64,000 bases of DNA, from IMG/VR virus record IMGVR_UViG_3300035661_000030, positions 24,799-88,798 of that record. The stretch is one strand, 5' to 3'. The position numbers were made by a program, and so were the translations under genes. Under the pieces are notes generated by a model, which did not search any database, was not told where the DNA came from, and saw nothing but the letters and a program-made list of their open reading frames with translations. Each line of letters begins with the position of its first letter. Position 1 is the first letter of the stretch. This stretch comes from a virus (taxonomy: Duplodnaviria; Caudoviricetes). Below, in pieces: positions 16,019 to 20,425 of the stretch.

Positions 16019-16067
16019 ATTTTTACTTGTTTTCAGGAATCGAAACCTTGCTTTTATTTTACGAAAA

Positions 16068-16127
16068 TAAGTTGGCTGTACCATCATCGGGTACGATTTA
16101 ATCTCTGCGACTCAGAGAACCAACTTA
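16068..16127 (-). ncRNA. Candidate three-way-junction RNA A
   Basis: TAAGTTGG/CCAACTTA closes GTACC/GGTAC and TCTCTG/CAGAGA. Confidence 0.5.
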
Positions 16128-16188
16128 GGGCAACCGTTTCCGGTCAGCCTCCACCACTTGCTTTTAACCATATAAAGCAAGAAAGGAT

Positions 16189-16264
16189 TGGTTGGGGCGC
16201 TAGGACTCGAACCTAGAACCGACAGGATCAAAACCTGTTGCTCTACCAATTGCGCTACACCCCA
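16189..16264 (-). tRNA. tRNA-Gln(UUG)
   Basis: Cloverleaf; ACAGG-TTTTGAT-CCTGT anticodon arm; CCA encoded. Confidence 0.95.
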
Positions 16265-16274
16265 TTAGTAATAA

Positions 16275-16318
16275 TGGTGGCCGTTTTAGATATCAATGAT
16301 ATCTTAGGATAAACGGCC
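16275..16318 (-). ncRNA. Candidate CCA-ended minihelix RNA (44 nt)
   Basis: GGCCGTTT-ATCCTA-AGATATC-ATT-GATATCT-A-AAACGGCC-A-CCA on the minus strand. Confidence 0.5.
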
Positions 16319-16410
16319 AAACCTAACGGTTCTAGAACCGTGTGTCTTTTTTATAAAGCTAATTTGACCAAAGACCATGAAATATCAAATTAACTCCTGG
16401 CCGGATCTTC

Positions 16411-16548
16411 TTAAAGAACAAAACGGAAGCGTTGCATACTAGCTAGTGTAGCAACCTTTCTTTGTGGTGGCGAAGTGTACCGCTCCGTTATTCCACTCAT
16501 ATCGCAGATCGACCCTTGTTTAAGGGGATCTTCCGTTTTGTTTTTTAA
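16411..16548 (-). ncRNA. Candidate multi-stem RNA B
   Basis: 13-bp perfect closing stem AACAAAACGGAAG (16417)/CTTCCGTTTTGTT (16530), extendable; internal hairpins. Confidence 0.55.
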
Positions 16549-16550
16549 AA

Positions 16551-16664
16551 AGGATGGGGGTTTTAATCCACTTGTCCCTACCCCCAAAGGTCTTAAAGTG
16601 CGTGGACCTTACCCAAGTCATTACACTTCCGTTCGTCAGACTTGGAATTGAGAACGTGAAGTAA
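16551..16664 (-). ncRNA. Candidate pseudoknotted RNA
   Basis: Three hairpins plus loop-loop TCCAC/GTGGA and loop-tail ACTTC-CGTTC/GAACG-T-GAAGT complementarity. Confidence 0.5.
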
Positions 16665-16666
16665 AA

Positions 16667-16788
16667 TCTGCCAAATCAACATTAGCACCTATTCGACATA
16701 CAGGAGTTTTTATGGCTCACTATGTCTACTCATTCGGTAGTTGATACGGATGACGTCTCTCTTTTGCGTAGGATAGAGAATTGGCAGA
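16667..16788 (-). ncRNA. Candidate multi-stem RNA C
   Basis: TCTGCCAA/TTGGCAGA closing stem begins 1 nt after the tRNA-Glu CCA; internal ATCAAC/GTTGAT, GACATA/TATGTC, TCTCT/AGAGA. Confidence 0.5.
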
Positions 16789-16789
16789 A

Positions 16790-16864
16790 TGGTAATCCCA
16801 AGGGGATTTGAACCCCTGTTCCCGCCGTGAAAGGGCAGTTTCCTAACCACTAGAAGATGGGATC
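16790..16864 (-). tRNA. tRNA-Glu(UUC)
   Basis: Cloverleaf; loop CTTTCAC; CCA encoded. Confidence 0.95.
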
Positions 16865-16871
16865 ACAACTA

Positions 16872-16941
16872 TTCGGAGAAGGTGTAATCAATCCTTAACA
16901 CCAGTCTGTTGACTTATCTCACGATAAGTCTCTTCTCCGAA
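16872..16941 (-). ncRNA. Candidate three-way-junction RNA D
   Basis: TTCGGAGAA/TTCTCCGAA closes GGTGT/ACACC and GACTTATC/GATAAGTC. Confidence 0.55.
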
Positions 16942-16944
16942 AAA

Positions 16945-16997
16945 CCAAGCTGCGATTACGCATATCGAGTCCTAGAATACGTCCATAGGACACTTGG
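16945..16997 (-). ncRNA. Candidate three-way-junction RNA E
   Basis: CCAAG/CTTGG closes TGCG/CGCA and GTCCTA/TAGGAC; starts 4 nt after the tRNA-Lys CCA. Confidence 0.45.
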
Positions 16998-17001
16998 TTA
17001 T

Positions 17002-17078
17002 TGGTGGAGCTGATGGGACTCGAACCCATGACCCACGGCTTAAAAGGCCGTTGCTACTACCAGCTGAGCTACAGCTCC
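17002..17078 (-). tRNA. tRNA-Lys(UUU)
   Basis: Cloverleaf; ACGGC-CTTTTAA-GCCGT; CCA. Confidence 0.95.
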
Positions 17079-17092
17079 GTGCTCCTAATTAA

Positions 17093-17178
17093 TGGTCCTC
17101 GGGACCGGATTCGAACCGGTACGTCCTTTCGGACAGCGGATTTTAAGTCCGCGGCGTCTGCCGTTCCGCCACCCGAGG
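17093..17178 (-). tRNA. tRNA-Leu(UAA)
   Basis: Class II cloverleaf with variable arm; GCGGA-CTTAAAA-TCCGC; CCA. Confidence 0.95.
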
Positions 17179-17182
17179 TAAA

Positions 17183-17330
17183 GTGCCCGAGTATTTGCAT
17201 TTGCTCGGGTCTATCTTATTCTGGCTTAGAGTTGCAACTCTAAATGCACTTAGCCATATCCGGTTTCCGCAGGTCCGGCAACCTACCCCATCCAATATTT
17301 CAACGCAGCCCGATGAGGTAGGCTTGGCGT
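17183..17330 (-). ncRNA. Duplicated structured RNA, copy 1 (148 nt)
   Basis: Near-identical to 17843-17989; four stems, two pseudoknots, G-U pairs on the minus strand. Confidence 0.75.
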
Positions 17331-17337
17331 TGATATC

Positions 17338-18981: not shown

Positions 18982-19007
18982 ATTTGTAAAACATTTCACT
19001 GATTGAT

Positions 19008-19083
19008 TGGAGCCTATAGTCGGAATCGAACCAACGACCTACTGCTTACAAGGCAGTTGCTCTACCAACTGAGCTATATAGGC
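19008..19083 (-). tRNA. tRNA-Thr(UGU)
   Basis: ACTGC-CTTGTAA-GCAGT; CCA. Confidence 0.95.
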
Positions 19084-19142
19084 GAAACGGCAGTTTAAGC
19101 ACAACTGCCAAGCCACTAATTTTTGTTCTTAAGATAAGTATT

Positions 19143-19325
19143 TGGTAAGTGATCCAAATTACTTTCCGCAATCGGTCAGTCAGGTTTCAGAGATACACTA
19201 TGCGCTAAGGGTGGCCGATAACCATATAGCGTTTAAGTTTACCCTACCTTACAGTCATGACGTTTGGAGCTATTAAGGTGATAGCTTTAATCCAAATCGT
19301 TACGGATTGGATACCGTATTCCTCG
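19143..19325 (-). ncRNA. Candidate structured RNA(s) between tRNA-Pro and tRNA-Thr
   Basis: AGGGT/ACCCT, CGCTA/TAGCG and ATCGG/CCGAT crossing pairs; ends TTACCA; further hairpins at 19255-19325. Confidence 0.4.
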
Positions 19326-19332
19326 TTTTTAT

Positions 19333-19409
19333 TGGTCGGGGTAATAGGATTTGAACCTATGACCCTCTGCTCCCAAAGCAGATGCGCTACCAGGCTGCGC
19401 TATACCCCG
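19333..19409 (-). tRNA. tRNA-Pro(UGG)
   Basis: TCTGC-TTTGGGA-GCAGA; CCA. Confidence 0.95.
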
Positions 19410-19423
19410 ATTAGTTTATTTAA

Positions 19424-19497
19424 TGGAGCGAGATATCAGATTCGAACTGATTTCTTCAGCTTGGAAGGCTGAGGCACAACCCATATACCAATCTCGC
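19424..19497 (-). tRNA. tRNA-Gly(UCC)
   Basis: TCAGC-CTTCCAA-GCTGA; CCA. Confidence 0.95.
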
Positions 19498-19507
19498 TTT
19501 TTATGGA

Positions 19508-19610
19508 TGGTAGGTCCACTAGGATTCGAACCTAGAACATTCGGTAATCTGCCGACGCTCTTTCGAGTGGAGGGTATAAACCTCTTGTTTTACCGTTAAA
19601 CTATGGACCC
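19508..19610 (-). tRNA. Atypical tRNA-Ile(UAU), 103 nt, two hairpins in the variable region
   Basis: GGGTCCA/TGGACCT-ACCA acceptor; D- and T-arms present; GAGG-TTTATAC-CCTC anticodon arm; CTC-GAAA-GAG and TCGG-CAGATTA-CCGA extra stems. Confidence 0.75.
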
Positions 19611-19624
19611 ATTATTTCAATAAA

Positions 19625-19700
19625 TGGTGGGGACGGAGAGGCTCGAACTCCCGACATATTGCGTGTAAGGCAATCGCTCTACCAACTGAGCTACATCCCC
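19625..19700 (-). tRNA. tRNA-Val(UAC)
   Basis: ATTGC-CTTACAC-GCAAT; CCA. Confidence 0.95.
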
Positions 19701-19715
19701 GTTTAATCAAATTAA

Positions 19716-19791
19716 TGGTGGCCCCACACAGATTCGAACTGTGGACCAGTCGGTTATGAGCCGACAGCTCTGACCGCTGAGCTATAGGGCC
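19716..19791 (-). tRNA. tRNA with CAU anticodon, most likely Ile2
   Basis: GTCGG-CTCATAA-CCGAC; GGCCCTATAGCTCAG start typical of Ile2. Elongator Met is not excluded. Confidence 0.85.
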
Positions 19792-19797
19792 AAAATA

Positions 19798-19914
19798 TTA
19801 CATTCGATAGTTCTTTTTATTTAAGTTAATAATTTCTTGCTTTCCATTATAATAACCGATTTTGTAAATCACAAAAAATCCTATAAATCCTGTAATCATA
19901 ATTAAAATGTTCAT
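19798..19914 (-). CDS. Small membrane protein (38 aa, not in track)
   Basis: AAAGGAG SD; MNILIMITGFIGFFVIYKIG hydrophobic helix. Confidence 0.6.
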   Translation of the reverse strand: MNILIMITGFIGFFVIYKIGYYNGKQEIINLNKKNYRM

Positions 19915-19928
19915 CAATCTCCTTTAAA

Positions 19929-20020
19929 TGGCGGAAGGTGAGAGATTCGAACTCTCGGATAGGTGTTAACCCATCAACAGTTTTCAAGACTGGCCCATTA
20001 AACCACTCTGGCAACCTTCC
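19929..20020 (-). tRNA. tRNA-Ser(UGA)
   Basis: Class II cloverleaf; loop CTTGAAA; GCCA end. Confidence 0.95.
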
Positions 20021-20029
20021 GTTATAGAT

Positions 20030-20107
20030 TGGCTTCTATTGTTAGATTTGAACTAATAGCCTAGTGATTAACAGTCGTTCACTCCAACTAATTGAGCTAA
20101 ACGGGAA
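20030..20107 (-). pseudogene. Degenerate tRNA-Asn(GUU)
   Basis: CTGTTAA loop, T-arm and GCCA retained, but acceptor and anticodon stems have several mismatches. Confidence 0.7.
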
Positions 20108-20271
20108 TGGGAATATTTATTTCGCCAGGGCTACCCTAAAGCTGCCCTGATCGAATAATTATCTTTATGCAATTATCAATGACGATTAATCTTCCCCGTA
20201 GGGCATACAAGTAGTGTAACACAACTGAGCTATCTGTCAACCATGACAGGTAAGAATATTTAATTTAAAAT

Positions 20272-20318
20272 TAGCTCCACCTTAACCCAAAGATTTTCTC
20301 TAGGTTAAGGTGGAGCTA
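20272..20318. repeat. 16-bp perfect inverted repeat
   Basis: TAGCTCCACCTTAACC (20272-20287) / GGTTAAGGTGGAGCTA (20303-20318). Confidence 0.9.
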
Positions 20319-20388
20319 TCAACAATTTGGTGCGCCTAAGCTTAAACGTATTATAAGAATTATGGCACACCAAATATATACCATGCCT

Positions 20389-20425
20389 CCATATATATTA
20401 TAACAAAATGTTGTTATATTTTGCA
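20389..20425 (-). promoter_or_regulatory. Promoter of the tRNA/ncRNA operon (TGCAAA-17-TATAAT, TGn extension)
   Basis: 21 bp identical to 39463-39483 and the same -35 hexamer at the same spacing. Confidence 0.7.

Follow-up and report, generated by a model that had tools for sequence, protein, structure and literature searches.

The DNA analyzed here is a stretch of 64,000 nucleotides (nt) from an uncultivated large phage of the Caudoviricetes (positions 24,799 to 88,798 of IMG/VR virus record IMGVR_UViG_3300035661_000030), referred to below as the window. Its minus strand carries a tRNA operon of approximately 4.4 kb, and the long spacers of this operon are selected RNA structures, modular and noncoding, and are both conserved and covarying in related phages. 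The explanation toward which we lean, by a modest degree, is that this is a stable-RNA operon with approximately ten autonomous structured-RNA genes that are released by tRNA processing and act in trans. The RNA genes counted in this way are S7, S10b, rep (two copies), X, S12, S13d, S13c, S13b, and S14, with S13a perhaps a further one. One precursor transcribed from a single promoter region would span the tRNAs, the transfer-messenger RNA (tmRNA), and the modules. RNase P and the tRNA 3'-end nucleases would then free each module as a discrete RNA ("tRNA punctuation"), with RNase III possibly cutting the long closing stems. The closing stems, which bring the two ends of a module together, would protect the released RNAs from exonucleases, and the freed modules would act in trans during infection. 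Punctuation by the tRNAs would be the most likely route because tRNAs directly adjoin the modules and a single promoter region serves the entire unit.

An earlier note on this DNA, made from the letters alone, had proposed that the spacers are mostly not random AT-rich DNA, and the composition, covariation, and conservation described here agree. The GC content of the array is 39 to 56% (39 to 51% in the approximately ten modules that are free of open reading frames [ORFs]), and that of the flanking genes is 22 to 33%. The long spacers are the leader (20107 to 20390), S2 (19792 to 19928), S7, a 1,265-nt gap (17179 to 18443), S12, S13 (16265 to 16789), and S14. When single minus-strand sequences were folded and compared with dinucleotide shuffles, six of the eight long noncoding spacers folded far beyond the shuffles. 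The z scores were -8.7 for S10b, -8.2 for a 660-nt unit at 17183 to 17842, -6.8 for the leader, -4.9 for S12, -3.9 for S13, and -3.2 for S14; S7 scored -1.4, and the two ORF-bearing spacers scored approximately 0. In the minimum-energy folds S10b, S12, S13b, S13d, and S14 are discrete modules with closing stems. Together with the pseudoknots of rep and S13c described below, these stems match the closing stems, internal hairpins, and pseudoknots that the earlier note had reported.

The comparative evidence comes from approximately five related phage arrays recovered from metagenomes. These were located via protein look-ups of a neighboring gene for a 182-amino-acid (aa) protein, which is 55 to 76% identical among the relatives; the tmRNA is approximately 75% identical in L020. 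Relative L001, a close one, is an IMG/VR contig of 112 kb that is estimated to be 72% complete. L004 is from a Logan assembly; L006, L007, and L008 are short JGI contigs; and L019, L020, and L021 are from ENA assemblies. Four other relatives (L003, L005, L018, and L023) do not have the array at the corresponding place. Scans for further members with patterns for rep, S7, S13b, and S13c in IMG/VR, the JGI metagenome contigs, and the GTDB genomes yielded only one relative, which was already known, and 18-mer matches designated L014 to L017 were rejected as chance matches. The lineage is rare in these three collections, and the covariation therefore rests on few sequences.

Consensus folds were scored against column-shuffled alignments, and the z scores, from strongest to weakest, were those of S13b (-11.3), X (-10.9), the leader (-9.7), S10b (-8.3), S14 (-6.8), rep (-5.8), S12 (-4.6), S7 (-4.4), S13c (-2.5), and S13d (-0.5). 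Double compensatory changes, in which both partners of a pair differ and the pairing is kept, were counted in three modules. S13b had 12 such pairs (97% of alignment cells paired; 0 of 500 shuffles as high), S7 had 7 (99%; 0 of 500), and S10b had 8 (95%; 1 of 500). When the partner columns of these three modules were slid as a control, 0 to 2 double-change pairs were found, with 0 for S7 and 0 to 2 for S13b. Homologues and covariation, for which the earlier note had proposed to look, thus favor selected structure. The support is strong for rep, S13b, S7, S10b, and X; weak to moderate for S14, S12, and S13c; and weak for S13d.

The most elaborate of the modules is rep, a 148-nt multi-pseudoknot RNA that is present twice in the window. 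Copy 2 is at 17843 to 17989 and copy 1 is at 17183 to 17330, ending 4 nt short of tRNA-Leu; the two are approximately 90% identical and flank the 512-nt region X. Covariance model R1 describes ten copies at eight loci with 73 to 93% identity, and rep is upstream of tRNA-Leu in all lineages; neither the window nor the 112-kb relative has additional copies. All nine helices, of which three are of the pseudoknot type, are retained with covariation in eight distinct copies. The first pseudoknot pairing joins the loop ACCUCAUC to a downstream GAUGGGGU, the second joins AGGU to ACCU across a CCGG hairpin, and the third joins a bulge, UGCAUUU, to a loop, AAAUGCA, a pairing that in L021 is made by AUGCUU and AAGCAU. 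In the last hairpin the pairing goes from CCCGAG/CUCGGG, by way of GGUUUGAG/CUCAAACC, to GGUUCGUAGC/GCUGCGGACC; in DNA letters, one example of this covariation is CCCGAG/CTCGGG to GGTTTGAG/CTCAAACC. All copies share an invariant, palindromic apical loop, UUGCAA. The phage RNAs GOLLD and ROOL form homo-oligomeric RNA-only cages, and the palindromic loop of rep is a hint, and only that, toward a comparable oligomerization.

S7 (249 nt; 19084 to 19332, minus strand, as for all modules) lies between tRNA-Pro and tRNA-Thr and has an invariant core of approximately 95 nt. It is 90% identical in L004 and 88% identical in L020, and it is the best-conserved module despite its low single-sequence score. 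A perfect 13-nt complementarity between S7 (19288 to 19300) and the tmRNA (18793 to 18805) was considered as a possible pairing and rejected, because neither L004 nor L020 retains it. S10b (17990 to 18157) consists of a closing stem of approximately 17 bp and three hairpins around a four-way junction, with homologues in L008 (82% identity), L004 (78%), and L006. S13b (16400 to 16556) has a 25-bp closing stem and three hairpins and is 83% identical in L021 and 80% identical in L004.

X (17331 to 17842) is a multihairpin region, probably composite, that is divided into Xa (17741 to 17842) and Xb (17331 to 17740). Its single-sequence z score is -7.9, it is 93 to 95% identical in L001 and L008, and all of the substitutions between the window and L001 that fall within predicted pairs preserve the pairing. 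S13c (16557 to 16663) is a 106-nt pseudoknotted RNA that is 100% identical in L001 and 96% identical in L021. S14 (16020 to 16188) forms a three-way junction after tRNA-Gln, just before the terminator, and is 77% identical in L004 with four compensatory pairs. S12 (16865 to 17001), which has two stem-junction domains, is 88% identical in L001, where it likewise follows tRNA-Lys; its comparative support is weak because there is only one compensatory pair. S13d (16664 to 16789) begins 1 nt past tRNA-Glu and is 85% identical in L021 and L004, in both of which it also directly follows tRNA-Glu. Its closing stem changes from TGCCAA/TTGGCA to TGCTAA/TTAGCA, and the shuffle test for S13d was not significant. 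S13a (16265 to 16399) is a folded spacer with no homologue in the recovered arrays of the relatives, and the comparison gives it no support.

It is conceivable, although we consider it rather unlikely, that at least one of the compact pseudoknotted modules (rep, S13c, or S7) is a new class of ribozyme, ligand- or protein-binding aptamer, or self-assembling RNA. In that case the operon would be a phage "toolbox" of trans-acting RNAs, e.g., decoys of host RNA-targeting defenses or RNases, with the tRNA-processing pathway as their route of delivery. The features that single out these candidates are the three pseudoknots and palindromic loop of rep, the near invariance of S13c, and the invariant core of S7.

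The modules are autonomous from their tRNA context, as the arrays of the relatives demonstrate. S13c is between tRNA-Glu and tRNA-Gln in the window, between tRNA-Leu and tRNA-Lys in L001, and precisely absent from L004. Part of X (17715 to 17807) is found between tRNA-Gln and tRNA-Lys in L019. L004 has tRNA-Leu, a single rep, S10b, and the ORF, and X is absent. L008 and L006 have approximately 296 nt of other sequence in place of the first 100 nt of X (Xa), and the 5' two-thirds of S7 have been replaced in both L006 and L007. Some module-tRNA pairs travel together, namely S7 or its 3' part with tRNA-Thr, S13d with tRNA-Glu, and rep with tRNA-Leu. The arrays of the relatives also contain other ORF-free spacers with 32 to 46% GC, z scores of -3 to -8, and no homology to the window modules (in RNA-sense coordinates, L021 1487 to 2600; L001 2503 to 2629 and 3445 to 3677; and L004 1 to 283). 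Thus, the lineage draws on a larger pool of such RNAs.

Duplicated flanks mark the insertions, with rep around X in the window and the 5' end of the tmRNA in L020, where it is duplicated (RNA-sense 1671 to 1756 and 2621 to 3004) around an 864-nt insertion that carries an HNH gene. In L008 a remnant of the 5' end of tRNA-Leu and a degenerate T-arm follow rep copy 2, which shows that an X-rep-Leu cassette entered by recombination with flank duplication. HNH (HNH_3) and DUF559 endonuclease ORFs are inside the arrays of L020 and L004. In the window a gene for a 317-aa LAGLIDADG/HTH homing-type endonuclease-like protein (20414 to 21367, minus strand) is located between the array promoter and a sigma-factor gene, and it is missing from the corresponding place in L001. 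Module and tRNA cassettes are probably exchanged among related phages via the homing endonucleases in and beside the arrays.

The modules are on the tRNA strand and within one transcription unit, as the earlier note had proposed for the spacers and tRNAs, with conserved promoters at one end and a single terminator at the other. That terminator was correctly located in the earlier note; at 15989 to 16018, a GC hairpin precedes 8 consecutive U residues. At the other end, P1 is a phage-type promoter-like motif (TTTTGTTATAATATATATGGAG and the sequence upstream of it; 20387 to 20428, minus strand). The promoter that the earlier note had placed at 20389 to 20425 is the motif TTTTGTTATAATATATNTGGAG, and its conservation ahead of the arrays of L001, L020, and L021 bears that assignment out. 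A second copy of the P1 motif in the window, TTTTGTTATAATATATATGGTG, is at 39461 to 39482 on the minus strand (0.02 copies expected by chance), and it probably represents a promoter consensus specific to the phage, with a GGAG ribosome-binding site as part of it. P2 (20213 to 20240, minus strand) is a sigma70-like promoter (TTGACA, 16 nt, TG-n-TACACT) whose -35 box and extended -10 box are both conserved in four of four arrays (the window, L001, L020, and L021). No internal terminator was found on the sense strand of the array besides a hairpin in the leader.

Downstream of P1 the order is a possible 21-aa leader ORF (20319 to 20384), a 22-bp hairpin with a U-rich tail that resembles a terminator or attenuator (20272 to 20318), P2, and a structured 5' leader of approximately 100 nt (20107 to 20205) that is approximately 80% identical in L020. 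The hairpin stem is retained in L020 by compensatory changes, from AGCTCCACC/GGTGGAGCT to AGCATCACC/GGTGATGCT. The leader region as a whole, hairpin included, has 10 compensatory pairs; 100 column shuffles gave at most 9. The leader is better read as a promoter/attenuator architecture, with two promoters flanking a terminator-like hairpin, than as an RNA gene. Thus, the claim of at least 9 to 10 discrete GC-richer structured elements in the operon stands in number, with approximately ten modules, and falls for the leader.

The tRNAs themselves were identified with ARAGORN, which called 11 tRNAs and the tmRNA on the minus strand at 16189 to 20020, and with Rfam, which added two further tRNAs at 19511 to 19610 (100 nt) and, as a weak hit, 20033 to 20106. 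The latter is tRNA-Asn(GUU), whose counterpart in L020 is called as a tRNA by ARAGORN. The minus-strand operon therefore has 13 tRNAs plus the tmRNA (Rfam score, 90.9 bits); the earlier note had recognized the tmRNA and undercounted the tRNAs as 12. A block at 19333 to 20106 comprises tRNA-Asn, tRNA-Ser (19929 to 20020), and tRNAs for Met, Val, Ile(UAU), Gly, and Pro. tRNA-Thr, the tmRNA (18574 to 18981; tag ANNVFTFVASFFNAPAFAFAKAA), and tRNA-Arg are at 18444 to 19083, and tRNA-Leu(UAA) and tRNA-Lys(UUU), both called by ARAGORN, are at 17002 to 17178. The distance between module and tRNA is 0 to 8 nt at six junctions (rep copy 1 to Leu, S7 to Thr, Pro to S7, Glu to S13d, Lys to S12, and Gln to S14), in line with the elements tight against tRNA ends that the earlier note had described. 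The only ORFs in the array with ribosome-binding sites are the two short ones that it had also picked out. One, for 38 aa, is inside spacer S2 (19798 to 19914, minus strand), and the other, for 87 aa with an AAGGAG ribosome-binding site (18158 to 18421, minus strand), has a homologue kept in L004, L006, and L008. Neither matched a known family, and the 21-aa leader ORF is a possible third candidate.

Phage T4 offers the closest precedent for such an arrangement. Its tRNA cluster yields a precursor of approximately 1.75 kb with eight tRNAs plus the species I and II RNAs and includes the homing endonuclease gene segB (PMC2330249). The window likewise has small structured non-tRNA RNAs on the tRNA strand, between conserved promoters and one terminator, in a mosaic cluster associated with a homing endonuclease gene. 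Whereas T4 has two such RNAs, species I and II (rnaC and rnaD), the window has approximately ten modules, of which several are pseudoknotted, as well as a tmRNA, and there is no sequence similarity by blastn. When the array was compared by blastn with 50,697 phage records, only tRNAs matched, and the T4 RNAs did not. By analogy, release of the window modules by tRNA processing would parallel the T4 cluster.

The main rival to release and action in trans is that the modules serve the precursor only in cis, as RNase III or RNase E stems, as exonuclease blocks, or as folding insulators that prevent misfolding of the adjacent tRNAs or set the order of maturation, and that they do nothing after cleavage. 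We regard this as a real but clearly less probable explanation. It would account for the long, near-perfect closing stems of S13b (25 bp), S10b (approximately 17 bp), and the leader hairpin (22 bp), for the abutment of modules and tRNAs, and for the joint movement of the module-tRNA pairs named above. However, a processing stem does not need an invariant core of approximately 95 nt such as that of S7, multiway junctions, or three pseudoknots. Furthermore, S13c and part of X work in differing tRNA contexts, and at seven other junctions of this operon an AT-rich spacer of 12 to 15 nt is sufficient.

Several observations weigh against the modules being independent trans-acting RNAs. Discrete species, their stability, and their action in trans are what we infer from the arrangement of the operon, and long perfect closing stems suit plain RNase III processing sites equally well. 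Each module is represented by two to four independent lineages, so that support for S12, S13c, S13d, and S14 is weak and there is none for S13a. The strand of S13b, S13d, and rep is not fixed by folding alone. X may be a composite of smaller pieces and not one RNA. Finally, no RNA-binding partner protein (Ro60, TnpB, RtcB, or RNA ligase) was found in the window, nor was a tmRNA-message mimic or a Y-RNA/Ro60 pair.

A second alternative is that the modules are very divergent versions of GOLLD, ROOL, HDV-like theta, or other self-cleaving ribozymes that Rfam models do not recognize. GOLLD and ROOL are phage and prophage RNAs, often located near tRNA islands, with elaborate multihairpin folds (PMC12286853), and the HDV-like theta ribozymes of gut phages are small, pseudoknotted, tRNA-associated RNAs proposed to process tRNA 3' trailers (PMC10879173). 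The phage tRNA-island context of the window modules is that of these RNAs. Like GOLLD (RF01998) and ROOL (RF03087), the 660-nt unit of X plus rep is ornate, and rep and S13c are compact, pseudoknotted, and of ribozyme-like size.

The searches make such an identity improbable. Rfam 15 was searched with the whole array and with single spacers at gathering thresholds and at E values of up to 10 with relaxed filters, including short stretches (cmscan of, among others, 15800 to 20600 and 17170 to 18165), and no spacer matched a family. Because there was no match even at this E value, GOLLD, ROOL, and HDV-like and other ribozymes were not detected in the spacers, nor were riboswitches, RNase P, or 6S; the ribozyme and riboswitch hits of the relaxed runs were at chance level, far under gathering scores. 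The earlier note, which could not match the elements to GOLLD, ROOL, or HDV-like cores by eye, was right in this respect. The large region of the window is also modular, since close relatives lack X or have part of it exchanged, which would not be typical of one large conserved RNA. With regard to the 3'-trailer position of theta ribozymes, S7, S12, S13d, and S14 begin 1 to 8 nt past a tRNA CCA, whereas rep is 5' of tRNA-Leu. The fold of rep, with three pseudoknot pairings in 148 nt, does not seem to be the nested double pseudoknot of HDV.

A third alternative is that the spacers are functionless debris, i.e., decayed tRNA or tmRNA genes or remnants of introns or homing elements that inherited their GC content and hairpins. 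Remnants of this kind do exist in the lineage, including the 5' remnant of tRNA-Leu and the degenerate T-arm/acceptor piece between rep copy 2 and X in L008 and L006 and the duplicated 5' fragment of the tmRNA in L020, and endonuclease genes are present. However, debris is a poor explanation for the modules of the window. The window spacers contain no residual tRNA or tmRNA at E values of up to 10, as every hit overlaps a real tRNA or tmRNA, and the compensatory changes, with conservation above that of the tmRNA, show purifying selection on structure. That the conserved spacers encode small proteins is very improbable, because, although most modules contain potential ORFs of 20 to 49 codons and X has an antisense frame of 83 codons, no ORF is conserved across the homologues of any module, the X frame is broken in L008, and the substitutions pair across stems rather than following codon position.

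The sequence speaks neither for nor against the decoy, antidefense, or translation-regulator roles suggested in the earlier note. Structured RNAs in phage tRNA islands are already known as a kind, and tRNA-adjacent phage RNAs have stood without an assigned function for decades, T4 species I and II since the 1970s and GOLLD and ROOL since 2010 to 2017. From the searches described above, the RNA families of the window appear to be undescribed, and the density, pseudoknot content, and cassette behavior of the modules are unusual. Approximately ten undescribed RNA folds within 4.4 kb, several of them heavily pseudoknotted, are small enough to be transcribed and probed individually, and the natural swap and deletion variants in the relatives already reveal which pieces are autonomous. 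Thus, the operon provides a compact test bed for deciding whether tRNA-island RNAs are processing aids or trans effectors and whether there are new ribozyme or aptamer classes among them.

The tRNAs and tmRNA of the operon have peculiarities of their own. The tRNA-Ile(UAU) at 19511 to 19610 (minus strand) has a long extra arm that holds a conserved GGCAGAUUACCG hairpin. Its 93-nt homologues in L009, L019, and L020 were called by ARAGORN as tRNA-Ile(tat), whereas the window copy, which has an additional 10-nt insertion relative to them, was missed. tRNA-Thr(UGU), as called by ARAGORN, is 87 nt in L004, L006, L007, L019, and L020 versus 76 nt in the window. The tmRNA tag, at 23 residues, is unusually long and is hydrophobic, and a variant in L007 ends in ...FADAA.

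The earlier note had referred to jumbo phages, a label that the 112-kb record of L001, at its estimated completeness, does not support. Elsewhere in the window, a gene at 25829 to 31807 (plus strand) encodes a 1,992-aa fused multisubunit RNA polymerase beta-like protein, the closest cultured relatives of which are in Vibrio phages D181, D148, and D69 (approximately 187 kb), at no more than 31% identity. A 2,093-aa protein with no assigned function is encoded at 7942 to 14223 (plus strand). The 254-aa protein encoded at 49874 to 50638 (minus strand) has a HicA-toxin-like domain at its N terminus, and the block of replication genes around it also includes those for RNase H and an exonuclease of the DEDD (RNase T) type.

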